A stretch of 64,000 nucleotides of DNA from Candidatus Saccharimonadia bacterium. Its GTDB lineage: Bacteria > Patescibacteriota > Saccharimonadia > UBA4664 > JBBRNT01. The stretch covers positions 18,619-82,618 of the forward strand of contig JBBRNT010000005.1 of NCBI GenBank assembly GCA_038230095.1. The letters run 5' to 3'. Both the position numbers and the translations under genes were made by a program. Under the pieces are notes generated by a model. It saw only the letters and a program-made list of their open reading frames with translations. It had not been told where the DNA came from and made no database searches. Below are positions 38,543 through 56,200 of the stretch, in pieces. Numbering within the stretch: the first letter of the stretch is position 1; every line of letters begins with the position of its first letter.

Positions 38543-38878
38543 TTACATTTTAATTTCAATATCCACGCCTGCTGGGAGGTTCAGGTTCATGAGGGCGTCG
38601 ATGGTCTTGGGGGTGGGCTCGGTAATGTCGATCAGGCGCTTGTGAGTGCGCATTTCGAACTGCTCACGGGCGTCCTTGTGGACGAAGGTGGACTTCAGTA
38701 CGGTGTAGCCATTACGCTCAGTGGGCAGTGGGATCGGGCCGGCTACCTTGGCACCGGTACGGATAGCAGTGTCTAGAATCTGCTTGGCCGACTGGTCTAT
38801 GACCTTGTTGTCGTACGCCTTGAGGCGGATACGGATGCGTTGTTTCTGATCGGTCTTGGGCTCGACTTTGTCGGCCAT
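38543..38878 (-). CDS. rpsJ: 30S ribosomal protein S10
   Basis: ...[28 protein letters not shown]... Confidence 0.93.
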
Positions 38879-39152: not shown

Positions 39153-40337
39153 CTACTTGAGAATCTTGGTTACAACGCCGGCGCCGACGGTGCGTCCACC
39201 TTCGCGGATAGCGAAGCGGAGGCCTTCTTCCATAGCGATTGGGGCAATGAGGGTAACCTTCATTTTGACATTGTCACCAGGCATAACCATCTCCATACCA
39301 TCTGGTAGAACGATCTCGCCGGTTACATCCGTTGTACGGATGTAGAACTGAGGCTTGTAGCCCTTGAAGAATGGAGTGTGACGGCCGCCTTCGTCCTTTT
39401 TCAGAACGTAGACTTCAGAGTCAAACTCGGTGTGAGGAGTGATAGAGCCGGGCTTAGCCAGGACCTGACCACGCTCAATGTCGGTGCGCTCAATACCGCG
39501 GAGCAAGGCGCCGACGTTGTCGCCAGCCTGTGCATCGGGAAGGAGCTTCTTGAACATTTCTACACCAGTAACGACAGTCTTCTTGGTAGGGTGAATGCCG
39601 ACGATTTCAACTTCGTCATTGACCTTGACGATACCTTGCTCAATACGACCGGTAGCAACGGTACCACGGCCCTTAATGGAGAAGACGTCTTCGATTGGCA
39701 TAAGGAAAGGCTTGTCGGTCTCGCGCTTAGGCTGTGGGAAGAAGTCGTCCATAGCCTTAACCAGCTCCATGATGGACTCTTCGGCAGCAGCGTCGCCTTC
39801 GAGAGCCTTGAGGGCTGAGCCCTTAATGATAGGGGCATTCTCGTCGTAGCCCTGCTTACCAAGTAGTTCGCGGACTTCGAGCTCTACGAGCTCGGCCAGC
39901 TCTGGATCGGCCATATCCATCTTGTTCATGAAGACCAGGATGGAAGGGACACCCACATTGCGGGCGAGCAGGATGTGCTCACGAGTCTGAGGCATAGGGC
40001 CGTCAGCAGCGGACACAACTAGGATGGCGCCGTCGACTTGGGCAGCACCAGTGATCATGTTCTTGACGTAGTCAGCATGACCAGGCATGTCGACGTGGGC
40101 ATAGTGACGATTCTCACTCTCGTACTCCTGGTGAGAAGTAGCGATGGTAATACCGCGCTCGCGCTCTTCTGGAGCGTTGTCGATCTGATCGTAGTTGATC
40201 GGCTTATTAATATCTGAGGGAAGCTTCTTGGCCAAAACGTGAGTAATGGCGGCGGTCAGGGTAGTCTTGCCGTGGTCGACATGACCCATGGTGCCGACGT
40301 TCATGTGCGGCTTATTGCGATTGAATGTATCTGCCAT
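39153..40337 (-). CDS. tuf: elongation factor Tu
   Basis: [14 protein letters not shown]-equivalent [12 protein letters not shown] and SALKA motifs; 394 aa. Confidence 0.95.
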
Positions 40338-40600
40338 GCAGTCTCCTTACATCTGTTACTTGACTCGAGACGAGTAATCCTTGCGACCCCCGTTCTTGCG
40401 GTTGCAAGACTGTCGAAGGGTCAATCATCTGGATTCAAGCATTAAATAGTGCTATTGCCTTCTGGGCACTTAAAAAAACGCCCGGGTTGGACTTAGCCAT
40501 TATAGGGACAACTAGGGGGCTTTGTAAAGGGGTAATACCAGGTAAATGAAAGACGGCCTAGAGAGGTTCTAGGCCGCCGGGTGCGGAGCAGTAGCTGGCA

Positions 40601-40960
40601 CTAGCCTCCCCTGGTGCGCTGACGCTGGAGCGGCGGCAGGAGCGGCTTGCCCGATCGTTTGTTTGAGAGTGCCAGTTCTGATAGCTCAGAAAGTGCTGCT
40701 GCTGAGAGACTACGAAACTCATCGGCGTGACGACGGCGCAACTCGGATATGGCTCGGGCGTTTGCTAAGCGGCGGATTTGGTCGCGCTCATGCGTCGATA
40801 GAAGCGCCGTGGCGGCGCGGTATACAACCAGACAGGAAACGCAAGACACGGCTGATGGGAGCGTTGTGGCGTCTACGTTCGCTACGCGTCGTCCGCACGC
40901 GGCACGGAGCGTGGACGTATTCACATCCCCTGCTGATAAGGCGGCTAGGTGTGTGGTCAT
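40601..40960 (-). CDS. hypothetical small protein; coding status uncertain
   Basis: 119 aa. The C-terminal half looks helical and protein-like (RDQIRRLANARAISELRRRHADEFRSL). It lies in a GC-rich 1.5-kb spacer between fusA and tuf. Confidence 0.3.
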   Translation of the reverse strand: MTTHLAALSAGDVNTSTLRAACGRRVANVDATTLPSAVSCVSCLVVYRAATALLSTHERDQIRRLANARAISELRRRHADEFRSLSAAALSELSELALSNKRSGKPLLPPLQRQRTRGG

Positions 40961-41128
40961 GGTAGGCTTACACCCCCGCGGAATGCAGCTTCTTGCGCAC
41001 GGCTACAGCAACGCGCTTGCAATTGCCACAGCTAGCTGCGGACGGATTCTCCACCAGCCGTATGCGGATAGCATGGGTACCACAGAGGGTCTGTCGGCCT
41101 GTCTGGGCAGACTTGCGAGCGTGAGTGA

Positions 41129-41326
41129 TCACCCTGGCCGCCTTTGTTCAGCCGTAACGGCGGGCTCGCGCAAGACTGACTCCAGCCGAGCTACTTCATG
41201 GCGCTGTACCGCGGCACTTACGACCGCCACCATCACTAGGATGAGCAGTATGCCAATGCCCATGAGTGTGAGCCAAAGCGTGTACTGGTGCCAGTGCTGG
41301 TTGAAAGAGTAGGTGTACTGGTCCAT
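41129..41326 (-). CDS. hypothetical small single-TM protein; coding status uncertain
   Basis: 65 aa with one hydrophobic helix followed by a charged tail. Confidence 0.3.
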   Translation of the reverse strand: MDQYTYSFNQHWHQYTLWLTLMGIGILLILVMVAVVSAAVQRHEVARLESVLREPAVTAEQRRPG

Positions 41327-41530
41327 TGCGACCCCTAGCGCTCGAAATTGGTTGTCAAAGACAGACGCTGTTGTCCGCCACCGATCTCTCGATTGGTGGG
41401 CATATTGTACAACTAATTGGGGTATTTATCACTAGCCTGGTAGCCGCAGCAGAGCACGATAAAGCGGCTCGGGGAAATCCGAGCCGCTAGCGAGTGTGGG
41501 CTGGGTCAGACGGCCAGCTGTGGTGTGGGA

Positions 41531-41743
41531 TTAGGGACGGTTGCTTGGCTGGCTGCGGCTTTCGGCCTCGATCTCTTCATAGAGCCGAGCTAGCTCTAGC
41601 TTCTGGCGCAGCAGGACTACGACCTGCAAGGCTAGGACCAGCACCAGCACGGCTGCATAGCAGATGACCGCCCGAACCATAAACCAGCGTATTTGCCGGC
41701 CGAACTCATACCAGACTGCATAATCGCCCATCATTGCCCCCAT
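41531..41743 (-). CDS. hypothetical small single-TM protein; coding status uncertain
   Basis: 70 aa with one TM helix followed by a charged coiled segment (LRQKLELARLYEEIEAES). Confidence 0.3.
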   Translation of the reverse strand: MGAMMGDYAVWYEFGRQIRWFMVRAVICYAAVLVLVLALQVVVLLRQKLELARLYEEIEAESRSQPSNRP

Positions 41744-41798
41744 TTCGAATAGAACACCAGGACTTCTGGTGCGGCATACTGTACCACATTTGGGGTAA

Positions 41799-41826
41799 CA
41801 AAAAAACGCCCGAAGGCGTTTTTTTG
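41799..41826. terminator. bidirectional intrinsic terminator downstream of fusA
   Basis: aaaaaaacgcccgaaggcgttttttt. Confidence 0.65.
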
Positions 41827-41838
41827 GACACGGTCTGG

Positions 41839-43923
41839 CTAGTTCTTGGCAGCTGCGCGCTTGCCAATGATCTCTTCGGCTACATTACGAGGAACTTCCT
41901 CATAGTGGTCAAACTCCATAGAGTTGGCAGCTCGGCCCTGGGTCATGGAACGCAGTGTGGTGGTGTAGCCAAACATTTCACCGAGTGGGACAAAGGCGCG
42001 GACAATCTTGATGCCCATGCGGTCATCCATGGCCTCAATACGGCCACGCTTACTATTCAGGTCTCCGATGACGTCACCCATGAACTCTTCAGGAACGGTG
42101 ACTTCGACCTTCATGATTGGCTCGAGGATGATAGGATCGGCCTTGCGGGCACCTTCCTGGAAGGCCATGGAGCCGGCAATCTTGAAGGCCATTTCGTTGG
42201 AGTCCACTTCGTGGAAGCTACCATCATAGAGCTTGACGGCCACGTCTACAACTGGGTAGCCGGCTAGCACGCCATTGTTTAGTGCTTCTTTCACGCCGTT
42301 CTCTGTCGGAGTAATGAACTCGCGAGGGACGGCACCACCGACAATAGCGTTCTCAAAGACGAAGCCGGCACCCGGCTCCTGGGGGGTCAGCTCCAGCCAG
42401 ACGTGACCATACTGACCACGACCACCGGACTGGCGGACAAACTTGCCCTCGGCCTTAACGCTCTTTTTGATAGTCTCGCGGTAGGCTACCTGAGGCTTAC
42501 CAACATTGGCCTCTACCTTGAACTCGCGACGCATACGGTCGACGATAATGTCCAGGTGCAGCTCACCCATACCATCAATGAGGGTCTGGGCGGTTTCTTC
42601 GTCAGTATGAACACGGAAAGTAGGGTCTTCTTCAGCAAGGCGCTGCAGAGCAATACCCATCTTCTCTTGGTCGGCCTTGGTCTTGGGCTCGATAGCGATG
42701 GAGATAACTGGCTCAGGGAAGGTAATAGCTTCCAAGATGATTGGCTTGTCGACGTCGCACAGGGTATTGCCCGTGGTTGTGCCCTTTAGACCGACGGCAG
42801 AGGCAATCTCACCGGCGAAGACTTCGCTTACTTCTTCGCGAGTGTTGGCGTGCATACGCAGGATGCGGCCGATGCGCTCTCTCTCACCCGTGGATGAGTT
42901 GAGCACGTAGGAGCCAGACTTGAGTGAGCCGGAGTAAACGCGGAAGAAGGCTAGTTTACCCACGAATGGGTCGGTAGCAATCTTGAAGGCTAGGGCAGAA
43001 AACGGCTCGGAGTCGTCAGCGTGACGGGCGTCTTCCTCACCAGTCTTCGGATTGGTGCCAATAACGGCCTCAATGTCTAGCGGGCTGGGGAGGTAGGCGT
43101 TGACGGCGTCTAATAGCTGCTGCACACCCTTGTTCTTTAGGGCGGAACCGGACAGCACGGGGAAGAGCTGGCCCTTCAAGACAGCGTGGCGCAGGGCCTT
43201 GTTGATCTCAGCAACGGAGATCTCCTCACCCATCAGGAACTTCTCAGTCAAGGCCTCATCCGTCTCGGCGACGCGCTCAATCATGGTGTTGCGGAACTCA
43301 GCGGCCTTAGCCTTCATGTCTTCCGGAATTTCGACGACGTCGAAGACCTTGCCCAGGTCGTCGCGGAAGAGGATGGCTTCCATCTTAATAAGATCGATAA
43401 TGCCTGCAAACTGGTCTTCGGCACCGATAGGTAGCTGAATAGCGACGGCGTTCTTGTTGAGTCGGTCCCAGATGGACTGCATGTCCTTGTAGAAGTCGGC
43501 ACCAGTACGGTCCATCTTATTAATAAAGCAGATACGAGGCACGCCATACTTGTCGGCCTGGCGCCAAACAGTCTCAGACTGAGGCTCCACACCAGCAACA
43601 CCGTCGAAGACCGTCACACCGCCGTCGAGCACGCGGAGCGAGCGCTCTACCTCAACAGTAAAGTCCACATGGCCTGGGGTATCGATAATGTTGATACGGT
43701 GGCCGTCCCAGAAGCAGGTGGTAGCAGCAGAGGTAATGGTAATACCACGCTCCTGCTCCTGTTCCATCCAGTCCATGGTAGCGGCGCCTTCGTGCACTTC
43801 ACCAATCTTGTGAGTCTTACCGGTGTAGAACAAAACGCGCTCAGTAACGGTGGTCTTACCAGCGTCAATGTGGGCAATAATACCAATATTTCGAGTGTTT
43901 TCGAGCGAGTATTCGCGAGCCAT
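41839..43923 (-). CDS. fusA: elongation factor G
   Basis: [22 protein letters not shown] and NKMD motifs. Start set at [12 protein letters not shown] (ATG at 43923, AAAGGA RBS); the track ORF extends to 43986. Confidence 0.94.
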
Positions 43924-44103
43924 GGTGTCCTTTATGGTGGTTAATGACGGATTGTCGGCGCTAACAAGAAAAAAGCGCCGAAGCACTTGGCTTATGATAG
44001 CCGAAAACTACGTGTCAATCAAGTAAATTATAGCAGGCCTGGCTAAAGCCACGTGGTTGTCGTATAAGTAGGTGGATCGAACCCGATAGCACCTGGAGTC
44101 ACT

Positions 44104-44592
44104 GTGAATCTGTATGCAATGCTTGACCAGCAGCTCGTAAAGCTATGGCGCGGTGTCCTCCGCGTACTGTGCGGCCTGACGGGCCGTAGCAATTTCTGCT
44201 TTGCCCGACTCATCATCATAGCCGGTGCCTACTGGAGTGTTCGCTGGGCCGCCTGGCGCCTGACGGACTGGGTAGCGGTGACCGGCTTCGGCGCGATTAG
44301 TGTGGTAATCGTATGGCTGACCATACTGCTGCAAAGGGACGGAACCGAAGTGCGGGTTGGTGTACAGCGACTGCTTATGGCCTTCCGGAGTTCGCTAAAC
44401 ATTACAATCGCCATTGTCGGCTTCCAGTCCATTTTCAACCCCGCGATCCGCAGAATGGTGCTTATCATGGCGCTACTTGACGTGCTGGCCTACTTCGTGT
44501 CCATCCCGACTCCACCCCAGTCAAGCTGGTTCACACGGGTCGGTCGGGCAGCGCGCAACCAGGTTTCCATGAGCCCTCACTCGCGACGCTAG
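44104..44592 (+). CDS. hypothetical 4-TM membrane protein (paralog pair, member 1)
   Basis: 162 aa; similar architecture to the 44677..45219 product. Confidence 0.5.
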   Translation: MNLYAMLDQQLVKLWRGVLRVLCGLTGRSNFCFARLIIIAGAYWSVRWAAWRLTDWVAVTGFGAISVVIVWLTILLQRDGTEVRVGVQRLLMAFRSSLNITIAIVGFQSIFNPAIRRMVLIMALLDVLAYFVSIPTPPQSSWFTRVGRAARNQVSMSPHSRR

Positions 44593-44596
44593 ACCC

Positions 44597-44636
44597 CGCC
44601 CCAATCTGCACGGATTGGGGCGGTAACTTTTCTAGG
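44597..44636 (+). terminator. intrinsic terminator (ccgccccaatc-tgcacg-gattggggcgg, then a T-rich tail)
   Basis: Perfect 11-bp stem immediately after the stop; homologous to the terminator at 45223. Confidence 0.55.
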
Positions 44637-44676
44637 TGGGATAATTGTGGTATAAAAGTGTTCTATTGGCCCACTC

Positions 44677-45219
44677 TTGATAGGACAGGTCATGCTCCAT
44701 ATCGACAACCTACTGGTTAGGTTCTACGCCTACCCCCTCCGCTGGCTGAAGCGGCGCTACAAGCGTGATAACTTCTGGGCGGCGAAGTACTGTCTGATCA
44801 CAGCGGCCATTGCTATCCAGCCGGTTGTACTCATGTTCCACGACCACATCATTCGTGTGCTCGCGGCAGGCTTCACTATGTGTATGGGCCTATTCTACCT
44901 ACTCATCTGGACCTTCGTCCGTGAACTGCGCTCTAAGATGCCCGAATTCCATACGGGTGGTGTCCCCCAGGTATATGGCCGGCTAGTAGCTGCTCGCCTG
45001 AGTACGCTGGCCACGCTGCCGGTGCTTCTGACTTACGAGCTGCTCACAAAACTCAACGGCTTTGTGGTCGCGAGCTACCTGCTGGTAATATCGGCACTCT
45101 ATGCCGCCACAATTGTGAACCTGAACCCGCCCAAATGGGTGGGCCAGACCGGTCGCTCTGCATATGAAGCACTCCGCCGACTTGTCCGCCCAGCCCGTAC
45201 GATTGGCAACGCCCACTAA
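44677..45219 (+). CDS. hypothetical 4-TM membrane protein (paralog pair, member 2)
   Basis: 180 aa. Confidence 0.5.
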   Translation: MIGQVMLHIDNLLVRFYAYPLRWLKRRYKRDNFWAAKYCLITAAIAIQPVVLMFHDHIIRVLAAGFTMCMGLFYLLIWTFVRELRSKMPEFHTGGVPQVYGRLVAARLSTLATLPVLLTYELLTKLNGFVVASYLLVISALYAATIVNLNPPKWVGQTGRSAYEALRRLVRPARTIGNAH

Positions 45220-45222
45220 GTA

Positions 45223-45258
45223 CCCGCCCCTATCCTCTGGATTGGGGCGGTTTTATTT
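45223..45258 (+). terminator. intrinsic terminator (cccgcccc...ggattggggcgg-ttttatttg)
   Basis: Shares the gattggggcgg arm with the terminator at 44597. Confidence 0.55.
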
Positions 45259-45279
45259 GCAATGAAAAGGGGACCCGGA

Positions 45280-46248
45280 TTAGTCCAGGTCCCAACTGAG
45301 TTGGACGGTGTCTTGGCTTGTGGTGGTCTTCCAGAGCGGGGGCCTAGCGCGGTCCAGTACACGGAACTGGGCCTGGCGGAGGGCTAGAATGGCGGAATCG
45401 CTGCTATCTACGCCATGAGGCGTACGGGCAATGAGTCCACCCATGTGCCCGTTGGCCTGCCCGAGGGTAACGCTGCCAGATAATGCTCCATGGAGCTTAC
45501 CCCGCACTCGACGGCGGGCCGCTCGAGTCGGGCGCATAGTAGCCTCCCCAGTGGCAGCAATGTAGGTGATAGCTACGCCGCAGATGGTAACCGACTGCCT
45601 TGTAATGTCACTGTACTTGGTCTTCTTGTCGTTGCAGCGGAAGCCGGCCTCTTCAATAATGCGACGGATCCGGCGACGCTTGCGCTCGCCAATGGGGCTC
45701 GGCGAGGAGAAGGTAAGGTCATCGGCAAACCGAGTGTAGGCCATACCGCGGTAGTCCTGACCGGTCATGAGCAGCATTAGCCGCCTGTCTATGTGGTGGT
45801 CGCAGTAGTGATTGAACAGATCAGGCGAGGCTGGCGCGCCCGTAACCAAACCAACCTGCCCGCCGGGATAGCGCACCAAAGCATAGCGGAGCAGCCAGGC
45901 CGTTAGCCGGTCGCTATCAAGTCCGGGCTCGTAGCCTGCAAGCAACCGGGCTAGACGCCCAGCATCTACATTCTGGAAGGCATGAGCCAGGTCTAGCTGG
46001 TAGAAATAGCGGTGGTGCTGGTGCGGGAAGGCATTACTAATGCTACCTCGGCCCGGCACGGCGCCGTGGGCCTTGACCATGGGGTGGTTCTGGCTCCGTA
46101 GCCACGCGATGAGACGGCCATGTAGCTCGCTCATACTGGGGTTTGGTGGCCAGAAATTGCGACCACTCGCATCACGGTACATACCCAGCCAAGCAGGGTT
46201 GGCACCGGTCGGTAGCTCAAACGGGAAAGGATCCACCGGCACCTCCAT
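45280..46248 (-). CDS. reverse transcriptase, retron-type; RT domain only, with no maturase or endonuclease domains
   Basis: 322 aa with these motifs: GRGSISNAFPHQHH (NAxxH-like, RT1), YFYQLDLAHAFQNV (RT2), GLVTGAPASPDLFNHYCD (RT4, SP not SQ), YTRFADDLTF (YxDD, RT5), and a VT..G-like TRQSVTICGVAI in the thumb region. A GGAGA RBS precedes the ATG. Confidence 0.8.
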   Translation of the reverse strand: MEVPVDPFPFELPTGANPAWLGMYRDASGRNFWPPNPSMSELHGRLIAWLRSQNHPMVKAHGAVPGRGSISNAFPHQHHRYFYQLDLAHAFQNVDAGRLARLLAGYEPGLDSDRLTAWLLRYALVRYPGGQVGLVTGAPASPDLFNHYCDHHIDRRLMLLMTGQDYRGMAYTRFADDLTFSSPSPIGERKRRRIRRIIEEAGFRCNDKKTKYSDITRQSVTICGVAITYIAATGEATMRPTRAARRRVRGKLHGALSGSVTLGQANGHMGGLIARTPHGVDSSDSAILALRQAQFRVLDRARPPLWKTTTSQDTVQLSWDLD

Positions 46249-46884
46249 GGGTCTGGCCAGTCTCCCCCACTGTACAGATGGGCTCTAGATGGAGCAACCA
46301 TAAGGACAACGAGAAGGGCCCCGGCATATACCGGGGCCCGAGGGGAGGACTGGGGGAAGGAAGAAGGATTGATGATAGGTATGCGCCGAGAGATGCTACC
46401 CCGCGACCGAACCACCAGCTGGCTTGCCGATAGCCACCTATCACCCACCGCGTAGGGCACGTCTGCGGTGCTAAACCCCACTTCTTGGCCATACATAGAT
46501 GGTCCCCATCGCGACAGAGCAGACAACCCGTTCGAGACCCGATCGCCTTCAGGCCATCCCAGAGAGGACGACATGCAGCCTCCGTCAAAGCGTCAGCCAC
46601 GCACCGAGCTGAGCCCCGGCTGGGATGTTGCCACAGCTCGCGCAGTGGCAGGCTAACCGTGGGGGCACAACGGACGCATAGCGCCGCAGATACCGCCGCG
46701 GTAAACATGGCTCCAGGCCGCTGAGCCGAGGGCGTAGGCCCCGGGTTGCAAGCTCCACATTACTGCCATTCGCTGGCGCGTTTGGCTACTCCAGCAAGTA
46801 CTACTGGAGGGTAGTCGTGTCTGTGCCCCGACACAGCGGCCTCTAGAATGCCGATACCACCACTATACCGAGACTCCCAGATGG
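46249..46884 (-). ncRNA. candidate retron non-coding RNA (msr/msd) region upstream of the RT; boundaries not determined
   Basis: A 636-nt gap between two same-strand genes with no convincing ORF, only overlapping multi-frame GC-rich ORFs. Contains a perfect 9-bp hairpin gggccccgg-catata-ccggggccc (46316..46339) and further hairpins (caccgc..gcggtg at 46446..46470; gccac..gtggc near 46630..46655; ctgtg..cacag near 46815..46835). Confidence 0.3.
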
Positions 46885-47592
46885 CTACAAGTGGTATGTC
46901 AGCTCTGCAAAGAAACGGCCGTTGGGCTCGCGGTCTAGGTAGGCTACTAGGTCTGGGACGCTCGGAATAAGTTCGGCGCCCGGCACGGCAGATAGATGGG
47001 CCCAGAAGGCCTGTCCCACGGTACCAACACCGGGTATATCATCAGTTCGTAGACTGCCCTGGAGGGCGGTGCCCAGAAAGAAATGGAAGAGGATCTGGCT
47101 GACAATCTCATTGTTCTGGAAGATGGTAACATAGCCATCGCCGCGGTGCTTCAGTGTAGCCTTAAGGCCTGACTTATCCCGCAGCTCCCGCTCGGCGGCA
47201 GCGTAAATGCCCTCGCCGAGGTGCACTTTTCCGTAGGGAAAACTCACCATGCCATAGAGCGGCTGGCGAGCGCGGCGGTATAGCAGGTACTCGCCGGCCT
47301 CGTTCTGGCAGCAGACTAGGGTAACCACTCGAGGCTGGAAACGCGGCTTCATAATGGTCAGGCTCATGCGCTCGGCATAGTCCTGGCCGGATGGCGTAAG
47401 CGTGTACAAGCCGTCTGGGCGCTTGGCCACCAGCTTGTCGCGCATAACGGCCTTCAGATGGTACATAAACAAATTGCTGTCGACGCCCTCGGGCCGTAGT
47501 TCCGAGAAGCGTGCTGCATCGGTCAAGATAAGCGTCTTCACTATGTGCTGCTGGATATGGTGCATGGCTCCCCTTCGCTTCGAGTGTAGCAA
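46885..47592 (-). CDS. winged-helix (N-terminal) plus Nudix-fold (C-terminal) protein with a degenerate Nudix box
   Basis: N-terminal HIVKTLILTDAARFSELRPEGVDSNLFMYHLKAVMRDKLV is wHTH-like. The Nudix box is GKVHLGEGIYAAAERELRDKSGL (G-x5-E-x7-REL-x-DK-x-GL, where EE has become DK). Confidence 0.65.
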   Translation of the reverse strand: MLHSKRRGAMHHIQQHIVKTLILTDAARFSELRPEGVDSNLFMYHLKAVMRDKLVAKRPDGLYTLTPSGQDYAERMSLTIMKPRFQPRVVTLVCCQNEAGEYLLYRRARQPLYGMVSFPYGKVHLGEGIYAAAERELRDKSGLKATLKHRGDGYVTIFQNNEIVSQILFHFFLGTALQGSLRTDDIPGVGTVGQAFWAHLSAVPGAELIPSVPDLVAYLDREPNGRFFAELTYHL

Positions 47593-47674
47593 AGAATTGA
47601 GTCAAAACATATTGACGCGAGCACCTGGGGTGGTAGTCTTTAGGCAAATAGATCTGCCCCTTGAAAGGACCACT

Positions 47675-47989
47675 ATGTCCCAAACCAGCCACAGCATTGG
47701 TGATCGAAGTGCCGCTGCCGCCCAGTTCCAGGAGCTAGTCCTCCACCTAGGTGACACACCTGATGCCGCCACAAGACTGGCCAAATCCATCGAAGTAAGC
47801 CTCACTACCGAGCGGCTGGGTCATGACCCAGCGATTAACACCTACCGGGTGCTTATTCGGACACCATCCGGTGAGTGGCCTATGCGCTACGCCTCGCTCG
47901 AGGGCCTGGAGGCATTTCTGAACGGTGTTCAAGCACTGGGCGCCTGCCTGGGCATCCACTTCGCTATCCCCGACCTGCCCCAGCGCTAG
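47675..47989 (+). CDS. hypothetical protein
   Basis: 104 aa from the ATG at 47675, preceded by AAAGGA. The longer track ORF (47402..) overlaps the opposite-strand gene and is rejected. Confidence 0.4.
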   Translation: MSQTSHSIGDRSAAAAQFQELVLHLGDTPDAATRLAKSIEVSLTTERLGHDPAINTYRVLIRTPSGEWPMRYASLEGLEAFLNGVQALGACLGIHFAIPDLPQR

Positions 47990-48045
47990 CGCTTCCCACT
48001 AAGTAGACCGACCGACCGCCGGCCCAAGTCCGACCGCAACCCCTT

Positions 48046-48080
48046 CCGCCCTAGCTTTCTGAGCTGGGGCGGTTTCATTT
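48046..48080 (+). terminator. intrinsic terminator (ccgccctagc...gctggggcgg-tttcattt)
   Basis: GC stem followed by a T-rich tail, downstream of the 47675..47989 ORF. Confidence 0.45.
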
Positions 48081-48187
48081 GCCTACCTGATGGTCAAATA
48101 TTTTTGACTCAAAAGGTCCTGCTTGGTGTAGCTCATACAGCCACCTACGCTAGGGGTGTACGAGAAGTTCTTTGACAAGGAGACAAT

Positions 48188-48406
48188 ATGGGCGACCATG
48201 GTTACTACGATCTGACACCAGAACAGGAAAGAAGTCAGGCGGAGCATGCAGCTAGCGAACTCGAGCAGGTCTACAGCCGTGATAGTTACAAGTACGTCGA
48301 CATTTGCCTGGATTGTGGCTGCCATGTAGCCAGACGAAAGACCCACGACCAAGTCTGCGTGCCCAAGCTGGAGCGTAGGACTCAAGCATCGGGAGAAGGA
48401 GCATGA
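48188..48406 (+). CDS. hypothetical small zinc-ribbon protein (operon gene 1 of 4)
   Basis: 72 aa; CLDCGCH...C motif; stop overlaps the next start (ATGA). Confidence 0.45.
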   Translation: MGDHGYYDLTPEQERSQAEHAASELEQVYSRDSYKYVDICLDCGCHVARRKTHDQVCVPKLERRTQASGEGA

Positions 48407-49245
48407 CAACTTACGAGGATGTTGATCGGGGCATCTACCACGAGCGCTTGCTCCTGGTTGCCCAAAGTCCACTGCGGCCAATTTTAGTAGAGTTGGCAGC
48501 CGCCCTAGCTGAGTTCCAGCTAGCCCACCCAATTGCCGCGCGGTATGCACAGGCGCGCTATGAGCTTCTGCTGGCCTCCTGGTCGGCAGCTAGTGTGGGC
48601 TGGTGCACTAAGTGCCGCCAGATAGGGCTGGAGCTGCCGCAGCGCTACTGTGTTGAAACCACCAGACACTGCTCCAAGCTAGATAGCGACTACGATGTTG
48701 TGAGCTGGGATGAAGCCGTGACCGAAATCCACTGGCTGTGCAGCACCTGCCGCGGCGCATGCGCGAACCTATACCCCTGCGAGCTCCGCGATGGTTACTG
48801 GTGGTGCGGCCTCGGCGAGGCAGCTTGGGTGCCACGGCGGCCCACCGTGCACGAATTTACGCTGAAAACACTCGATGCTCTGAGTACAGCTCAGCAGCAA
48901 ACCTTGGAACGGAGGTGGGGCCTGCTACCGGCTCTGGGCCTGTCACCGTCCGACGTTACGGGTCCATGCCGTGTCTGGATCGCAGCCCATCTACCTCTCG
49001 TTACCGGCTACACGGCCGATGCAACTCATATCCAGGCGGTGCTAGAAGAGACGGCCATGGCCAACAGCCACCTGGGCGCTACATCTGAGCAACTGGCCAA
49101 AATGATTGGCCCGTGGACCAATTGCCCTCACTGCGGAGCAGGGCCAGGCTATCAGGAGCGCCGCAACCACAACATGACGTGGGGCGACGCAGATATACAT
49201 TGCTCCCTCTGCCACGGCTATGTGAGGAGCTGGGATGCAAGCTGA
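48403..49245 (+). CDS. hypothetical Cys-rich protein with multiple CxxC pairs (operon gene 2 of 4)
   Basis: 280 aa with CTKC, CSTCRGAC, CPHC and CSLCH motifs. Confidence 0.5.
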   Translation: MTTYEDVDRGIYHERLLLVAQSPLRPILVELAAALAEFQLAHPIAARYAQARYELLLASWSAASVGWCTKCRQIGLELPQRYCVETTRHCSKLDSDYDVVSWDEAVTEIHWLCSTCRGACANLYPCELRDGYWWCGLGEAAWVPRRPTVHEFTLKTLDALSTAQQQTLERRWGLLPALGLSPSDVTGPCRVWIAAHLPLVTGYTADATHIQAVLEETAMANSHLGATSEQLAKMIGPWTNCPHCGAGPGYQERRNHNMTWGDADIHCSLCHGYVRSWDAS

Positions 49246-49438
49246 GCCAATTAACTTCTTTCCTATTACGGTGCGGGTAATCATTGATGGACGGATACTA
49301 GCCGCTAGCCTTGAAGGGTACCGGCAGGTGCCAGGACAGTTCTACCCCACGCATACCCTAGCGATAGTGACGGTCGCCGGCCAGCTAAGCCAGCTAGTCT
49401 GCCTGACACAGCTCCTAGATGAATCGGACGCCGCGTGA
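49235..49438 (+). CDS. hypothetical small protein (operon gene 3 of 4)
   Basis: 67 aa; overlaps its neighbours by 11 nt upstream and 4 nt downstream. Confidence 0.35.
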   Translation: MQAEPINFFPITVRVIIDGRILAASLEGYRQVPGQFYPTHTLAIVTVAGQLSQLVCLTQLLDESDAA

Positions 49439-49824
49439 CTCGAATGCAAGCGGCTTGGCGGCTGCTTCGGCTTTGCGGTGTGCCTGTGGGCACTGCGGGG
49501 GCGCGTGAGGTGGCGTGGTTCCTGGCCTGGCTTGCGGGGCAGCAGCCAAAAGTCCTGTCTCGGTTTGACCCCGGGCGCAATGATGAGCATACCCGGGAAC
49601 CAGTGCATGACGAGAGCTACTGGTGGACCAAGCTGTGCATGTACCACCACCGCGCAGCCCAGCTGGGGCTGGAAAGCCCAGAAGGGCGCCAGGTAGTGTT
49701 TGAGCTAGCCGCTACTGCGGCAGGCTGGTGTGCGTCCATCGTACGTGTGTACGGCCAACCCAGCTCCGCTAGTGACGACTTCCGAGCCGGTGTAACAGGT
49801 CTTGATGCCATGACTAAGCCCTAG
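49435..49824 (+). CDS. hypothetical protein (operon gene 4 of 4)
   Basis: 129 aa; no recognised motif. Confidence 0.4.
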   Translation: MTRMQAAWRLLRLCGVPVGTAGAREVAWFLAWLAGQQPKVLSRFDPGRNDEHTREPVHDESYWWTKLCMYHHRAAQLGLESPEGRQVVFELAATAAGWCASIVRVYGQPSSASDDFRAGVTGLDAMTKP

Positions 49825-49864
49825 CCCAACTGACCCCGATAGAGTAATCTGTCGGGGTCTTTTA

Positions 49865-51517
49865 CTAGACCTGGCCTATCTGGAGCGTCTCGCCACCAAG
49901 CTTATCGGTGAAGTAGCTATCATGCGAGATGTAGAGAATGGCGCCGTGGTAGTTGGTAAGCGCTTTTTCGAGCTCTTCGATAGACGGCAGGTCTAGGTGA
50001 TTGGTAGGCTCGTCTAGGATGAGCAGATTGGGCTCCCCGGCCAGCATATTAATAAGCTGGAAGCGGGCTTTCTGGCCACCGCTAAGCACACTGATAGGTA
50101 GCTGGTAGTCGGTGGTAGGATCAAACAGGTACTGCGATAGAGTTTGGCGAACTTTCTGATCATTAATAGGCAGTTCATTAATGCGAAATACTTCAATAAC
50201 AGCGTCGCCAAGCGTCATTTCCAGATAGCGTCCGTCAATTTCTTGTTCATACAGGCCAATCTTGGTAGTACGGTCAATGACAATCTGGCCGCCAAATACC
50301 TGTGCCCGGCTCTCGCCCAACCCGGCCGTAGCAAGGATTTGTCGGACTAGTGTGGTTTTACCTGCACCGTTACGGCCACGTACCTGCAGGCGGTCGCTAT
50401 AGCGCAGCTGGGTAGTAATATTGGCAAATAATGGCTCCTTATAGCCCAAGGAGAGCCTGTCTAGCCCGAGGAGCTGGTGATAGCGGCCACTACCACCCTC
50501 GGTCGAGATACGGATGTTCTTCGCCTTGTACTTGTCATAGCGGTCAACTACCTTGTCCTGCAGCTGCTCCATCGAATCCGAATCTATCCAGAATGACGGC
50601 TTGACCATACTGGCCTTCAGCTCCTCATAGTGTTTGGTGAGTCGACGCTCCATAGGGATGAATGGGTTTGGCGTCTTGGAGGAGCCGGCCTTCTTCGCCC
50701 GGACTTCTTGGATCTGCTCATGCAGCTTCTCTAGCGTGCGCTGGGCTATCTCGTACTGGGCCATGGCCGTGACGGTGGCGACGCTATTCTGCTTGAGATA
50801 GTCATCATAGTTGCCGGTGTAGCTGACGGCGCGTTGTTCTTTTATCTCTATAATGCGGTCGACGTAGCGCAGGACGTCGCGGTCATGGCTAATAACACAG
50901 ACCGACTCCCCAGCGTTCTTAAACCACTCTATGAACTGCTGCTTGGCAATATAATCCATGTGGTTGGTGGGCTCGTCGATAAGCGCCAGATCGGCCTTGG
51001 ACTGAGTGACCTTGGCCAGCTCGACGAAGCGCTTCTGGCCACCAGACAGACGCGCCATGGGGGCGTAAGCTAGATCACGGTTAATCTGGTAGGCTTCTAG
51101 CGTCTGGACCACTTTGTCCTCCACTTCGTAGTAGCCCAGCTCGGTAAAGCGAGTAAGGGCGTCGCTATACTCGTGGATCTTCTTCATATCCTCACCCATA
51201 TGCTCGGGGTAAGTGTCTAGAATGTGCTTGAGTGCAGCGTACTGCGGAAGCTCGCTCAGTACGTAGCTGACCGCTGTAACTTCTTCTGGAAGATGGTGCT
51301 CCTGAGCAGTAGCTACCACTATGAGCCCACGGCGCGTCTGGATTGACCCATCATACTGAGGATCTTCCCCCGTGAGAATTCGAAACAGTGAGGTCTTGCC
51401 GACGCCATTGCGCCCAATAAGGGCAACTTTCTCATTATCTTGAAGCGTAATCTTCAGATCCCGGAAGAGGTGCTTGGTGCCGAGAGTCTTGTTGGTAATT
51501 TCTGCAGTAAGTAACAT
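49865..51517 (-). CDS. ABC-F family ATPase with two ABC domains and no TMD (translation-associated; EttA/Uup/YbiT-like)
   Basis: Two Walker A motifs (GRNGVGKTS and GRNGAGKTT), two LSGGQK signatures and two Walker B motifs; 550 aa. Confidence 0.88.
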   Translation of the reverse strand: MLLTAEITNKTLGTKHLFRDLKITLQDNEKVALIGRNGVGKTSLFRILTGEDPQYDGSIQTRRGLIVVATAQEHHLPEEVTAVSYVLSELPQYAALKHILDTYPEHMGEDMKKIHEYSDALTRFTELGYYEVEDKVVQTLEAYQINRDLAYAPMARLSGGQKRFVELAKVTQSKADLALIDEPTNHMDYIAKQQFIEWFKNAGESVCVISHDRDVLRYVDRIIEIKEQRAVSYTGNYDDYLKQNSVATVTAMAQYEIAQRTLEKLHEQIQEVRAKKAGSSKTPNPFIPMERRLTKHYEELKASMVKPSFWIDSDSMEQLQDKVVDRYDKYKAKNIRISTEGGSGRYHQLLGLDRLSLGYKEPLFANITTQLRYSDRLQVRGRNGAGKTTLVRQILATAGLGESRAQVFGGQIVIDRTTKIGLYEQEIDGRYLEMTLGDAVIEVFRINELPINDQKVRQTLSQYLFDPTTDYQLPISVLSGGQKARFQLINMLAGEPNLLILDEPTNHLDLPSIEELEKALTNYHGAILYISHDSYFTDKLGGETLQIGQV

Positions 51518-51643
51518 AACCCAGGTATATTACGCTAGGCTAGCCCGAACTGCAACCTAGAAACTATTGACAATACATTGTGCTTATGGTACTATGATGC
51601 GGTTCTCGAGAAATCGTCTCGGAATGGACCCCAGGAGTTTGAC

Positions 51644-52132
51644 ATGAATCGCAACCCCTACCTCACCAACCTACTGCTGATCGCCGTGTCCCTCGTGGCC
51701 ATGGTCACACTCGCCGGCCAGAACACTGCCTTCGCTGGAGGAACCGGGTGTCCGGCAACACCAGAGCAGATCGCCCAATGGGCGGCCGATGGTGTCGCCA
51801 ACCCCTGTGTCCTCATCGCCACAGACACCCCGCCGGTCCCTCACCAGCTCAGCTGGACACGGGGCCACGGCTACAGTGGCGACCGGGCATTTGCCTTCAT
51901 TGCCACTACCCGCAACCGCGCCAAGCAGCTGTGCGTGACCATTGGCGCCAAGAACGGCGCCTACCTGGCTACTGCCACGGTCACAGTCGAGAGTATCCGT
52001 CACGACCTGGCTGTCGGCACGGCTGTTGCCACCACTCAGTTGCGCCCCAACAGCCATGGGATTGCTAGGTTCTGCCCAAGCGCTGCCTGGCGGGTAATCG
52101 GTGCCAGCGTCGTTGCTGGGACCAGCACCTGA
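51644..52132 (+). CDS. hypothetical secreted protein
   Basis: Signal peptide MNRNPYLTNLLLIAVSLVAMVTLAGQNTAFA. Start set at the ATG at 51644, preceded by CCAGGAG; the track ORF begins at 51578. Confidence 0.55.
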   Translation: MNRNPYLTNLLLIAVSLVAMVTLAGQNTAFAGGTGCPATPEQIAQWAADGVANPCVLIATDTPPVPHQLSWTRGHGYSGDRAFAFIATTRNRAKQLCVTIGAKNGAYLATATVTVESIRHDLAVGTAVATTQLRPNSHGIARFCPSAAWRVIGASVVAGTST

Positions 52133-52153
52133 CGACCACGTTCTACCCTTCTG

Positions 52154-52197
52154 CCCCGCTTCGAGCTCTACAGCTCGGGGCGGGGCGTTTCATTTCT
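52154..52197 (+). terminator. intrinsic terminator (ccccgcttcgagct-ctac-agctcggggcgggg-cgtttcattt)
   Basis: Shares the gggcgg-tttcattt tail motif with the terminator at 48046. Confidence 0.45.
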
Positions 52198-52201
52198 ATC
52201 C

Positions 52202-52231
52202 AAAAAAGCCACCCGTAAGGGTGGCTTTTTG
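52202..52231. terminator. bidirectional intrinsic terminator downstream of rpsG
   Basis: aaaaaagccacccgtaagggtggcttttt. Confidence 0.65.
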
Positions 52232-52253
52232 GTACCTGCTTGCTCGGGAAGTA

Positions 52254-52730
52254 CTAGTACCGGGCGAAGTGGGCAAAGGCCTTGTTAGCCTCGGCCATCT
52301 TGTGAGTATCTTCTTTCTTCTTGATAGCGTCGCCAGTATTGTTGTAGCCGTTCATAATCTCGTCAGCAAGACGCTTGTCGAAACTAGAGCCGGACTTGCC
52401 ATTGGCAGCGTTCAGCATCCAGGTCATAGCGAGGTGGATCTTGCGGTCGCCACGCACTTCGATTGGCACTTGGTAGGTGGCGCCGCCGATACGTTTGGCT
52501 TTGACCTGCACCTGAGGAGAAACATTCTTGATAGCACCCTCAAACACATCCATTGCTGGCTGCTTGGTCTTGGCTTCAACAATTTCCATGGCACCGTAGA
52601 CTAGGCTCTCGGCTAGGCGCTTCTTGCCGCTCTTCATGACCTTGTTGATGAGCTTGGCGACAAGTACATTGCTGTAGCGAATGTCGGGCTCAATTACACG
52701 CTTAAAGGACTTGGTTTTCTTACGAGGCAT
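52254..52730 (-). CDS. rpsG: 30S ribosomal protein S7
   Basis: MPRKKTKSFKRVIEPDIRYSNVLVAKLINK... Confidence 0.93.
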   Translation of the reverse strand: MPRKKTKSFKRVIEPDIRYSNVLVAKLINKVMKSGKKRLAESLVYGAMEIVEAKTKQPAMDVFEGAIKNVSPQVQVKAKRIGGATYQVPIEVRGDRKIHLAMTWMLNAANGKSGSSFDKRLADEIMNGYNNTGDAIKKKEDTHKMAEANKAFAHFARY

Positions 52731-52801: not shown

Positions 52802-53218
52802 TCAGGCTTTCTTTTCTTTCTTAGCACCGTACTTGGAACGACCCTGCGCGCGCTTGGCGGCACCGGCAGTATCCAGAGCACCGCGAACAATATGGTAACG
52901 TACACCACCGAGGTCCTTGACGCGACCACCGCGGATAAGCACAACGGAGTGCTCCTGCAGATTGTGGCCAATGCCAGGAATGTAGGCGGTGACTTCCATG
53001 CCGTTGGTCAACCGTACGCGAGCAACCTTACGCAAAGCGGAGTTAGGCTTACGAGGAGTTTGCGTATACACCTTGATACAGACACCACGCTTAAATGGCG
53101 ATGGAGCTGGGGTAGTCTTAGCCTTCAGGGCGTTCAGATTGCGGCCGAGCGCAGGCGTAGGCGACTTGGTCGTCTTCGACTTGCGGGGCTTGCGGATGAG
53201 TTGATTGATAGTTGGCAT
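52802..53218 (-). CDS. rpsL: 30S ribosomal protein S12
   Basis: ...[46 protein letters not shown]... Confidence 0.93.
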
Positions 53219-53282: not shown

Positions 53283-56200
53283 TTAGGCGGCCTCAGGGGC
53301 TACTTCGTCGGTGCGTCGAGCGTCGCGGGTGGCACGCTCTACGGCCTTTACCTCGGCGGCCAGGGCGGCAGCAGCGGCGGCGGCTTCAGGACGGAAGCCG
53401 GTACCCACAGGGATAAGGCGACCGATGATCACGTTCTCTTTCAGACCACGGAGGCGATCGATCTTACCGCGAGTGGCGGCGTTGATGAGCACGCGGGTGG
53501 TGTCCTGGAAGGAGGCGGCTGACAGGAACGAATCGGACGAGGTCGAGATCTTGGTAATAGACAGGAGTAGTTGCTCGAAGGTAGCCGTTTTCTTGCCCTC
53601 AGCGTCGAGGATAGCATTCTCTTCAACAACGCTCATCTTGGTGACAATGTCGCCGGTGACAAATAGGCTATCGCCCGGCTCTTCTATCTGGACACGGCTG
53701 AACATTTGGCGAATGATCACCTCGATGTGCTTGTCCGCAATGGCCTGACCTTGCGAGGCGTAGATGGACTGAATTTCTGCCACAATGTAGCGCTGGACGG
53801 CGCCTTCGCCGAGCAGTTCGAGCATTTCTTGTAGGTTGATAGAGCCTTCGGTCAGACGAGCACCGACAGTCACGACGTCACCAGTGGTCACTGTTAGGTT
53901 GTAATAGTTAGGAATGGAGTATTCCTTGTCGCCACCGCCGTCTTCGGTGAGCTTGATGCTAGTCTTACCAACCTTGACGATACCGGCCACTTTGGCCTTG
54001 ATAGCATGCTTGCCCTTGGCATCGGCAGCTAGGACGTCGCCAGGTACCACCTTCTGACCGCTCTTAACGGCGGCTGTGCGGTTTTCTAGCTCATACTCGG
54101 TAACCTTGAGCTCGGCTGGCGCAATGCGTACCAGGTGCTTACCAGGGGCTTGTTTGACGGTGATAACACCGGCCACGTCGGCAAGTACTGCCTGACCCTT
54201 TGGATTACGGGCTTCGAAGATTTCCTCAACACGTGGCAGACCGGAGGTAATGTCCTCGCCGGCAACACCACCCTTATGGAAGGTACGCATGGTGAGCTGG
54301 GTACCGGGCTCGCCAATAGACTGGGCAGCGATAACGCCGACTGGCTCGCCGAGCTTGACTAGACCACCGCGGGCCAGGTCTAGGCCGTAGCACATTTGGC
54401 AGGCGCCCCAGAAGGTGCGGCACTTAAGCACGGTGCGGACTTTGACAAACTCGAGGCCACTGGCGTCGATAGCGTCCGACTGTGGAGCAGTGATCATCTC
54501 ACCGGACTTCACCAGGACTTCGCCGTCTGGGCTGACAATCTTATCGAGCGCAACGCGGCCAGAGATACGGGTAGCAAACTTCTCACCGATGAGCTCAGAC
54601 TCGCTACGGTTTAGGATACTGCCTTCAGTGTCACCACAATCGGCTTCGGTGATAATCACATCTTGGGATACGTCCACCATACGGCGGGTTAGGTAGCCAG
54701 ACTCGGCAGTCTTCAGAGCGGTATCGGTAAGACCCTTACGGGCACCGTGTGAGGAGTTGAAGTACTCCAGAACGGAGAAGCCTTCTTTGTAGTTACTTTT
54801 AATTGGCAGCTCAATGGTGCGACCACTTGGGTCGGCTACCAGACCAAGCATACCGGCCACCTGGTTGACCTGGGATAGGTCACCACGGGCACCAGAGTCG
54901 ACAAACAATGCGGCGCTAGTTGATTCCTTGCGCAAGGTCTTCTCAAGCTCATTGGTAATCTGACTATTGGCATTCTGCCAGGTCTCGACTGTGCGCTGAT
55001 AGCGCTCGTCGTCGGTGATAAGACCCTGACCGAATTGCTTACTAATCTCAATGGCCTGCTTTTCGGCGGCTTCGAGAATTTCTGGCTTCTTTTCGGGAAT
55101 GATGTAATCGTCTACGGAGATGGATACACCAGAGATGGTGGCGTGCTTGAAGCCCAGGTCCTTAATATCGTCAACCACGCGAGCGGTTTCTTCGGTGCCA
55201 TACTTGGCGAAGATCTCGGCGATAAGGCGCTGGAGGGTCTTTTTGGCTAGGATCTCATTACGGAAGCCAAAGGTCTCAGGCAGGATTTCGTTGAAGAGAA
55301 TCCGACCGACCGTAGTCTCCAGCATGGCGCCCTCAATAGGCACGAGGATCTTGGTTTGGAGCTTAATCAGGCCCATGTCATAGGCGTAAATAGCCTCATT
55401 GGTGTGGGTGTAGGCCTTGGGCTTGGCGTCGCTGCCGGCAAACTTGTCATAAGTGAGATAGTAGCAGCCCAGGACAATGTCCTGACCTGGGTTAACCACT
55501 GTGGCGCCGTCGGCAGGCTTCAGCAGGTTCTTAGAGGCCAACATAAGCTCGCGGGCTTCTTTCTGAGCAGCTTCGGACAATGGTACGTGAACGGCCATCT
55601 GGTCGCCGTCGAAGTCAGCGTTGAAAGCAGTACAGACGAGCGGGTGCAGCTGGATAGCCTTGCCTTCGATGAGGATAGGCTGGAAGGCCTGAATACCAAG
55701 GCGGTGAAGGGTGGGGGCGCGGTTAAGCAGGACATACTTGTCGGCGATGATCTCTTCCAGAACATCCCAAACCTCGGTGCGGCCACGCTCAATCATACGA
55801 CTGGCGCTCTTCACATTGTGGGCAAGACCCTGCTCGATAAGCTGGCTAATAACAAATGGCTTGAATAGCTCGAGAGCCATCATCTTGGGAAGACCACACT
55901 GGTGGAGCTTCAACGAAGGACCACTAATGATGACCGAGCGACCAGAATAGTCAACGCGCTTGCCGAGCAGGTTCTGGCGGAAACGACCCTGCTTGCCCTT
56001 GAGCATGTCGGACAGGCTCTTGAGCTTGCGGCGGGTACCAGTAGAGGACACGGCACGCTCACGACGAGCATTGTTGTCGATGAGGGCATCAACTGCCTCT
56101 TGGAGCATGCGCTTCTCATTGCGGCGGATGACTTCTGGAGCATCGAGCTCGATCAGACGACGCAGACGGTTGTTGCGGTTAATGACACGGCGGTAAAGGT

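Follow-up and report, generated by a model that had tools for sequence, protein, structure and literature searches.

Plasticity zones, or hotspots, flanked by core genes are known from bacterial pangenome studies. Among regulators, NrtR is a Nudix-related transcriptional regulator with a C-terminal winged helix-turn-helix (wHTH) domain. Orphan retrons, composed of a reverse transcriptase (RT) and a non-coding RNA (ncRNA) with no associated effector, were acknowledged by Mestre et al. 2020 (PMC7736814). Together with the ABC-F ATPases EttA, YbiT, YheS, Uup and VmlR/ExpZ, these are the described systems to which we compare a locus of Candidatus Saccharimonadia bacterium, located in contig JBBRNT010000005.1 (assembly GCA_038230095.1, positions 18,619 to 82,618 of the forward strand). 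This whole stretch of 64,000 nucleotides is hereafter called the window, and the locus is the gap that separates, in its str operon, rpsG (ribosomal protein S7) from fusA (EF-G). Our results make it probable that this gap of 8.3 kb is one genome's version of a variable interval that is old and lineage-wide, within a str operon that is fragmented; in it, an inherited backbone is accompanied by genome-specific cargo, and genes turn over without dedicated mobility genes.

Like plasticity zones, the gap lies at a fixed position between conserved genes, its accessory genes differ from one relative to the next, and no mobility gene is required. It departs from them in that the slot lies inside the str operon, which is normally invariant, and in that it possesses a backbone of its own, namely an ABC-F ATPase, a wHTH-Nudix gene with its candidate operators, and gene g129. 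The fusA|tuf and rpsJ|rplC junctions are also open here, so that operon fragmentation describes the situation as much as a single hotspot does. With respect to the canonical str operon, the order and orientation rpsL-rpsG-fusA-tuf were retained in the window despite the gaps; the window adds a terminator after rpsG, a promoter-like site before fusA and two gaps, of 8.3 kb and 1.5 kb.

These conserved genes all lie on the minus strand. Downstream of rpoC (53283-57197) and rpsL (52802-53218) comes rpsG (52254-52730), the upstream flank of the gap; a protein identical to its product is annotated as Ribosomal_S7, and those of the relatives are 73-85% identical to it. The downstream flank, fusA (41839-43923), is an open reading frame (ORF) whose product is 85% identical to EF-G of relative L091; it starts at ATG 43923, and its first 25 residues are the same in relative L088. 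It is followed by tuf (39153-40337). An earlier sequence-only reading of the window had described the rpsL-rpsG-fusA-tuf order as interrupted, rpsG as ending in its own terminator (52202..52231), and nine or more genes of mixed orientation as lying before fusA. Each of these statements held: the distance between rpsG and the fusA ATG is 8.3 kb, it contains 11 genes or ORFs in mixed orientation, and a bidirectional intrinsic terminator occupies positions 52202-52231 (stem GCCACCC/GGGTGGC around GTAA, flanked by AAAAAA and TTTTT). The same hairpin gave a weak RNAI-like match in Rfam. Likewise, the retron-like RT, the wHTH-Nudix gene and the ABC-F ATPase announced in that reading were recovered by family matches (that of the wHTH being weak), and its Cys-rich four-gene operon and secreted protein by overlapping ORFs, cysteine counts and a hydrophobic N-terminus. 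Family assignments for the interval proteins were taken from Pfam, PADLOC, NCBIfam and PHROGs.

RpoC, which places the contig in Saccharimonadia, served to find relatives, its named matches coming mostly from Saccharimonadia or Saccharibacteria (closest, 81% identical); a genome scan with EF-G was left unused for this purpose, this protein being too conserved (the matches listed were at most 70% identical and came from many phyla). Six relatives were recovered (L088/L089, L090, L091, L172, L173 and L174), 75-81% identical in RpoC; the DNA downstream of their rpoC was taken and their proteins were compared with those of the window. All six carried extra genes after rpsG, in a different mix in each, and the gap measured 1.5-8.9 kb in the five whose sequence reaches fusA. 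The simplest filling is that of L091, an ABC-F gene alone (51% identical to that of the window). L088/L089 contains ABC-F (88%), then AAA_28, CYTH and g269 (-), a Nudix homologue (58%), DUF5661, HisKA, and g104', g155 and g185 (-). After rpsG, L090 displays an SDR gene, g121, ABC-F (71%) and a convergent g129-like fragment, and its contig stops before fusA. The gap of L172 includes YdjM, g94, g71 and g154 (-), the latter being a homologue of g129 (54%), then Nudix (54%), PCC, g214 and g115 (-); that of L173, 1.5 kb long, is limited to PCC and two small minus-strand genes, and that of L174 is made up of g350 (-), ABC-F (55%), a Mur ligase, PCC and g105 (-). The fusA|tuf junction was also split (0.9-2.6 kb) in every relative in which it could be seen, with different genes in each. 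In outgroups (more distant Saccharibacteria and other genomes of the Candidate Phyla Radiation, CPR), rpsG and fusA were 0.05-0.9 kb apart, without ABC-F. Because the relatives also carry genes after rpsG and the outgroups keep the two genes this close, the split appears to be old and lineage-wide.

This synteny comparison, which the sequence-only reading had proposed as a check on its view of a single GC-rich island of about 8 kb inserted in the operon, separated two kinds of contents. ABC-F, wHTH-Nudix and g129 occurred at the same place in relatives, and the other genes were accessory; no counterpart in the loci of the six relatives was found for the RT and its leader, g104, g72, Cys280, g67 or the secreted protein. 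The interruption of the operon and the accessory nature of part of the interval were upheld, but the slot is lineage-wide and some of its genes are inherited. The block as such was not absent from relatives; it is its filling that differs. A PCC gene (PF03479), not found in the window, lies in the gap of three relatives (L172 17342-17779, L173 14768-15193 and L174 12929-13357) and is, to judge from these positions, apparently another semi-resident of the slot.

The organization that we propose is as follows. The str/S10 gene string is broken into separately terminated units (rpoB-rpoC-rpsL-rpsG, fusA, tuf-rpsJ, and rplC onward), with other genes held in the gaps between them. The inherited backbone of the present gap consists of ABC-F, of the wHTH-Nudix protein, which most likely acts through TTGA(C/G)TCAA both at its own promoter and at the promoter of a divergent operon, and of g129, here preceded by g67. 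The cargo met in this genome only comprises the RT and its leader, g104, g72 with Cys280, the secreted protein between rpsG and ABC-F, and two membrane proteins next to fusA. Gene turnover would proceed by homologous recombination between the conserved flanks, not by site-specific integration. The sequence-only reading had listed no integrase, transposase or tRNA, and this was confirmed: searches with Pfam, NCBIfam, PHROGs and PADLOC revealed no integrase, recombinase or transposase among the 11 interval proteins, a tRNA scan found no tRNA within 43-53 kb, and direct repeats at the boundaries occurred at chance level only.

The ABC-F gene (49865-51517) is on the minus strand, like rpsG and fusA. 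Its product matched two ABC_tran domains and the ABC_tran_Xtn linker in Pfam, with no membrane domain, which places it among ABC-F proteins, and its closest solved structures were those of the ribosome-bound ABC-Fs ExpZ/VmlR, YbiT, YheS and EttA. This domain organization is shared with EttA, YbiT, YheS, Uup and VmlR/ExpZ. It differs from known ABC-Fs by its score against NF000355 (ribosomal-protection-like ABC-F, NCBIfam), which was 339 bits for a cut-off of 380, and by its location between rpsG and fusA, which no literature report was found to describe. The gene followed rpsG in four of the six relatives, its identity decreasing from L088 (88%) through L090 (71%) and L174 (55%) to L091 (51%). 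It most likely encodes a translation factor or a ribosome-protection protein kept beside its functional partners.

The wHTH-Nudix gene (46885-47592, minus strand) likely starts at ATG 47565, which gives a protein of 226 aa, a length also called in L082. Pfam displayed a NUDIX match (3.3e-9) and a weak wHTH match to DUF7347 (0.0017). Homologues were present in the same interval in two of the six relatives (L088, 58%; L172, 54%). In these three genomes the Nudix box (REUxEE) reads RELRDK, RELMDK and RELSEK, one metal-binding Glu being replaced by Lys in all three. An inverted repeat flanking g104 (I14) led to a 9-bp palindrome, TTGA(C/G)TCAA, which occurred exactly twice in the window (47597-47605 and 48104-48112, for 0.34 expected), both times in the interval. 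Each copy sits in a 20-nt unit facing its downstream gene. Candidate operator box 1 (47597-47616, minus strand; TTGAGTCAAAACATATTGAC, containing TTGAGTCAA) lies 32 nt upstream of the Nudix ATG 47565, and candidate operator box 2 (48093-48112, plus strand; GTCAAATATTTTTGACTCAA, containing TTGACTCAA) 75 nt upstream of g72. In L088 (18743 and 18774) and in L172 (16594 and 16626) there were again just two copies of the palindrome, separated by 31-32 nt and immediately preceding the Nudix homologue, without further copies in these 24-kb loci. It was absent from the loci of L090, L173 and L174, likewise devoid of a Nudix gene in the sequence examined; L091, which has no Nudix gene either, contains one unrelated copy, so that three of the four Nudix-less loci lack the palindrome.

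On this comparative ground, TTGA(C/G)TCAA is likely to be the operator recognized by the wHTH-Nudix protein, which would itself probably be a ligand-sensing, autoregulated transcription factor, either repressor or activator. The regulator would control the divergent unit, i.e. g71-g154 in L172, g269-CYTH-AAA_28 in L088, and, in the window, g104 along with the g72-g129 operon. It resembles NrtR by what appears to be a fusion of a degenerate-box Nudix domain to a winged helix, by the palindrome in its own divergent promoter and by the nucleotide-related nature of the divergent operon in L088. Unlike in NrtR, the predicted wHTH is N-terminal here, and no match to NrtR models was detectable. In L088, the nearest relative whose gene context was available, the operon divergent from Nudix (16816-18711) encodes AAA_28 (NadR-like kinase), CYTH and a 269-aa protein; the presence of AAA_28 and CYTH fits a nucleotide-type ligand for the regulator. 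In the window, g104 and its terminator, located between the two boxes, seem to have been inserted into a divergent promoter that was ancestral, and g72-Cys280 to have been added ahead of g67-g129.

The third backbone gene, g129 (49435-49824), was 54% identical to g154 of L172 (E 1e-42), and a fragment of 25 residues matched it at the contig end in L090. It closes a four-gene operon (48188-49824, plus strand) with overlapping stops and starts and a terminator at 49832-49859. The other members are g72 (48188-48406), Cys280 (48403-49245) and g67 (49235-49438). Cys280 contains 14 cysteines, with several CxxC pairs, and g72 contains four. No homologue of Cys280 besides itself was found among 5.8e9 proteins.

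The RT gene (45280-46248, minus strand; alternative start GTG 46236, 318 aa) ends at a terminator (45270-45293). Pfam identified RVT_1 (6.6e-10) and the top PADLOC models were those of retron RTs. The best NCBIfam model, retron St85, scored 74.5 bits for a cut-off of 235, and the protein remained below every NCBIfam retron cut-off. A profile built on its clade matched the RTs of Ec83 (E 3e-30) and Ec86 (8e-29) over nearly the full length, and group II intron RTs and DRT2 scored far lower than retron RTs. Likewise, all 11 PDB sequence matches at E<1e-5 were retron RTs, as were the top 17 Foldseek matches in the PDB to its AlphaFold2 model (predicted local distance difference test score, 87.6). 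In the alignment to Ec86, SNAFPH falls on NAxxH and FADD on YADD; VTG is only partly kept (VTICG). By RT lineage, the protein belongs with the retrons.

Homologues of this RT, proteins of about 300 aa, did not exceed 41% identity and came without exception from metagenomes of CPR/Patescibacteria type; the clade thus defined appears to be found, so far, solely in CPR-type genomes. They are surrounded by unrelated housekeeping genes (RmuC, MarR, GroES/EL, RNase Y, enolase, a permease, a subtilase), and no conserved partner or effector gene was found beside them. The sole mobility gene observed next to clade members is that of an IS200-like (Y1_Tnp) transposase (L093 6279-6986), located about 0.4 kb downstream of an RT homologue. 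Viral contigs contained no relatives belonging to the clade, only distant RT relatives. About 80% of CPR RTs are attributed to diversity-generating retroelements in a review (PMC8632793). Such an element was rejected here, as no long near-repeat or template-variable pair was present in 43800-52400; its RTs were also missing from the solved-structure matches. A group II intron was rejected as well, given the lack of an Rfam intron match, the small size of the RT (318-322 aa) and the lower scores of group II RTs.

Upstream of the RT, 636 nt on the minus strand (46249-46884) form a non-coding, structured leader, which is the candidate retron ncRNA region. Its folding as a whole gave z values of -1.9 to -2.6; three sub-domains reached -3.6, -3.5 and -5.3, values that are biased by the choice of these domains from the minimum-free-energy structure. 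The last of them, a 95-nt domain (46258-46352), abuts the RT start; its closing stem covers the GGGGGAG that precedes ATG 46248, and within it a GC hairpin of 10 bp (46316-46339) comes before a U-rich tract. Possible roles of this domain are those of a small msr/msd-like unit, of an attenuator, or of a structure hiding the ribosome-binding site. An ORF of 163 aa in the leader, called as a gene in a contig of the Logan assemblies, was rejected as coding, with GC at third codon positions (GC3) below that at positions 1 and 2 and the worst codon score of the region (z=-3.2). Rfam revealed no family in the leader or upstream of the RT homologues, and these upstream regions share no primary sequence.

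An a1/a2-type repeat was sought in the window leader without success (perfect-stem scan, p=0.25; duplex search no better than shuffles). In homologues L083, L092 and L094, inverted repeats of 11-16 bp close segments of 253-376 nt that end 1-38 nt before the RT start (positions 245-620, 398-650 and 360-613, respectively, of the 680-nt upstream extracts); each repeat was significant at p<=0.01, and Fisher's method gave p=0.0018 over 11 loci. A repeat-closed segment placed before the RT is the layout described for msr-msd transcripts (PMC7736814). The segments closed in this way may belong to an undescribed ncRNA family of the CPR RT clade. In the 680-nt upstream extract of L086, an element of 14-15 nt (TGAAGGGTAAGGGG and its complement) was observed three times in alternating orientation (136-150, 276-290 and 457-470).

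Compared with orphan retrons, the RT of the window is nearest in sequence and fold to Ec83, Ec86, Ec78 and Eco7, displays NAxxH- and xADD-type motifs, is preceded by a structured non-coding region and has no conserved partner. It differs by its CPR-only clade, by its score (74.5 versus 235 bits), by the partial VTG and by the absence of a demonstrable a1/a2 pair in the window. The classical msr-msd transcripts known are also shorter than the leader lengths met here (636 nt in the window and 250-380 nt between repeats in three homologues). We provisionally file the RT as orphan-retron-like; its lineage is that of retrons, and no adjacent effector was recognized. It would presumably synthesize RT-DNA from the leader, and its effector, if any, would not be adjacent. 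One may go further and see in RT and leader a CPR-restricted, two-part retron class with no adjacent effector, its partner lying elsewhere or its role being other than defence, which would have arrived behind wHTH-Nudix, within a regulated slot for cargo inside the cluster of translation genes, and might share a transcript with this regulator; we hold this as a tentative and rather improbable extension.

A tripartite defence system, in which RT and ncRNA would sequester the product of an adjacent effector gene (wHTH-Nudix upstream or the membrane proteins downstream), is less likely still. Type IV retrons are known to have small membrane proteins as effectors, the RT is of retron type, and Nudix, leader and RT share one orientation, uninterrupted by any strong terminator before 46339. 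In L088 and L172, however, the Nudix gene and its operators occur without any RT, and RT homologues occur without a Nudix or membrane-protein neighbour or any conserved neighbour at all. The two membrane genes run towards the RT and are each followed by a terminator, and their weak homologue lies by fusA in L088 without RT. Moreover, Nudix is absent from the main text of the systematic retron survey (PMC7736814). Because the Nudix gene in relatives and the weak membrane-gene homologue beside fusA in L088 occur without RT, these neighbours are unlikely to be effectors of the RT.

The sequence-only reading had estimated by eye a higher GC in the gap than in the flanking ribosomal genes. The GC content of 43987-52253 was 57.5%, against 54.3% in the rest of the window; the 60-63% given in that reading was too high, as only the bins at 45-47 kb attained 59.8-61.1% (1-kb bins from 44 to 52 kb: 55.6, 59.8, 61.1, 57.6, 58.0, 58.8, 52.9 and 55.8%), and the ABC-F gene itself had 52.8%. 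Much of the excess resided at codon positions 1 and 2, the GC3 of interval genes (0.64-0.72) being near that of rpoB, rpoC, fusA and tuf (0.63-0.65). In relatives, interval GC equalled that of the flanks. Codon usage was scored per gene as log-odds, for which 53 other window genes served as the training set. Seven of the 11 genes, i.e. RT, Nudix, g104, ABC-F, the secreted protein and both membrane genes, fell within the window background (z -0.9 to +0.2), and g72, Cys280, g67 and g129 were atypical (z -1.2 to -2.7). The GC and codon-usage profile that the sequence-only reading had proposed as a check confirmed an elevated GC (by 3.2 points) and four atypical genes, but the other seven have native codon usage, and composition offers little support for a foreign origin of the interval.

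The related GC-stem terminators which that reading had noticed after plus-strand genes were also recovered. Stems of the CCGCCC...GGGCGG type occurred four times in 64 kb, three of them inside the interval (44596, 45224 and 48046), for 0.15 expected by chance, and a variant was found at 52152-52187, after the secreted-protein gene. The terminators were rejected as an extended repeat element, their likeness being confined to the stem.

A single island of some 8 kb, acquired horizontally and inserted between rpsG and fusA, would agree with the GC content above that of the flanks, culminating at 45-50 kb in the maximum of the window, with several ORFan or near-ORFan genes, with the concentration of related terminator stems and with the atypical codon usage of the Cys-rich operon. 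Against it stand the presence of ABC-F, wHTH-Nudix with its boxes, and g129 at the same locus in relatives, the mostly native codon usage, and the fact that the most GC-rich interval gene, g129 (63%), is among the conserved ones. The interval furthermore comprises seven or more units, in both orientations and each with its own terminator, and lacks an integrase, a tRNA and flanking repeats. A prophage or plasmid origin found no support either, as PHROGs matched only the RT and Nudix domains and the interval DNA had no match in phage or plasmid collections. We therefore regard a single island as improbable, more so than the tripartite retron.

An assembly chimera, in which mis-assembly of a metagenome bin would have joined the interval to ribosomal genes, is scarcely credible: the contig is metagenome-assembled and exact look-ups of fusA and ABC-F gave no independent contig (rpsG gave one of 743 bp only), but in L088, L091, L174 and L090 rpsG is followed by ABC-F at a distance of no more than about 1.5 kb, the weak membrane-protein homologue beside fusA in L088 provides the other junction with a syntenic counterpart too, an independent Logan assembly is 100% identical over 45076-48431, the 45-48 kb segment being present in SRR19962015, codon usage is native, and the rpsG terminator architecture is shared with L081.

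The preferred reading of the gap, as an old variable interval with backbone and cargo, has to accommodate several observations that weigh against it. The GC maximum of the window (59.4%) is a continuous stretch of the interval, from 45.1 to 49.7 kb, and, given the atypical codon usage of the four-gene plus-strand operon, some pieces may have been imported rather recently. The closest relative seen, L081, whose S7 protein is identical and whose rpsG is 91% identical in nucleotides, diverges directly after the rpsG stop, where it retains an analogous terminator hairpin and is otherwise unalignable over what its 743-bp contig covers. The nearest relatives with context are just 75-81% identical in RpoC, a distance at which the timing and size of single gains are not resolvable. 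The operator assignment is a comparative one drawn from three genomes, and turnover driven by recombination is inferred.

Among the cargo, g104 (47675-47989, plus strand, terminator 48046-48072) lies between the two operator boxes. It was called as a 104-aa gene in an independent Logan contig and has native codon usage; it matched no family in Pfam, PADLOC, NCBIfam or PHROGs. The predicted secreted protein (51578-52132, plus strand, terminator 52152-52187) is encoded by a 184-aa ORF whose likely start is the Met of MNRNPYL, 22 residues in, and displays a hydrophobic N-terminal segment followed by AFA; its codon usage is native (z=-0.10) and no family match was obtained with PADLOC, NCBIfam or PHROGs.

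The two small membrane-protein genes (44104-44592 and 44677-45219, plus strand) end in CCGCCCC...GGGGCGG terminators (44596-44623 and 45224-45250). The sequence-only reading took them for paralogues with four transmembrane (TM) segments each. Their nature as small membrane proteins with weak mutual likeness was confirmed, as they share N- and C-terminal motifs, but a simple hydropathy scan gave 2 and 3-4 TM segments instead of a clear 4+4, and their likeness did not exceed E=4.7 in BLASTP and E=0.021 over 37 N-terminal columns in hhalign. For both, the best weak match was g185 of L088, at the equivalent position beside fusA, and the second had one homologue among 1.84e9 representatives.

The divergent intergenic region before fusA (43924-44103) contains, on the minus strand (43973-44022), a promoter-like site for fusA (44022-43994; TTGATT-17-TATCAT) and then a terminator-like leader hairpin (43988-43973; AAGUGCUUCGGCGCUU) with a U-run. 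By eye, an alternative GGCGCU/AGCGCC pairing seems possible, and would make this hairpin an attenuator.

The fusA-tuf gap of the window (40338-41838, 1.5 kb) contains three small minus-strand ORFs, one of 119 aa with a CxxC motif and two of 65 and 70 aa with one TM segment each, as well as a terminator-like hairpin (40578-40552) and a near-consensus promoter-like site (40528-40499). Further on, rpsJ (38543-38878) and rplC (32864-33517) are about 5 kb apart (33518-38542), and the S10-operon junction is therefore also interrupted. This last gap holds a MIP aquaporin gene (33957-34574), a PIG-L deacetylase gene (35559-36281), a weak DUF3467 match and several unknown genes.

The locus is modestly novel in three respects: an ABC-F gene apparently resident in the str operon, a putative wHTH-Nudix regulator with a conserved palindromic box, and a clade of lone retron-type RTs found so far in CPR-type genomes only. 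In hard-to-culture bacteria, the regulator-operator pair, the ABC-F beside S7 and EF-G, and this small clade of lone RTs each provide a lead. In at least one lineage of Saccharimonadia, rpsL-rpsG-fusA-tuf is unsafe as a synteny anchor, being fragmented, hosting a resident ABC-F gene and forming a slot for gene turnover. This has consequences for marker-based binning and operon-based annotation, and island callers would flag the region wrongly.

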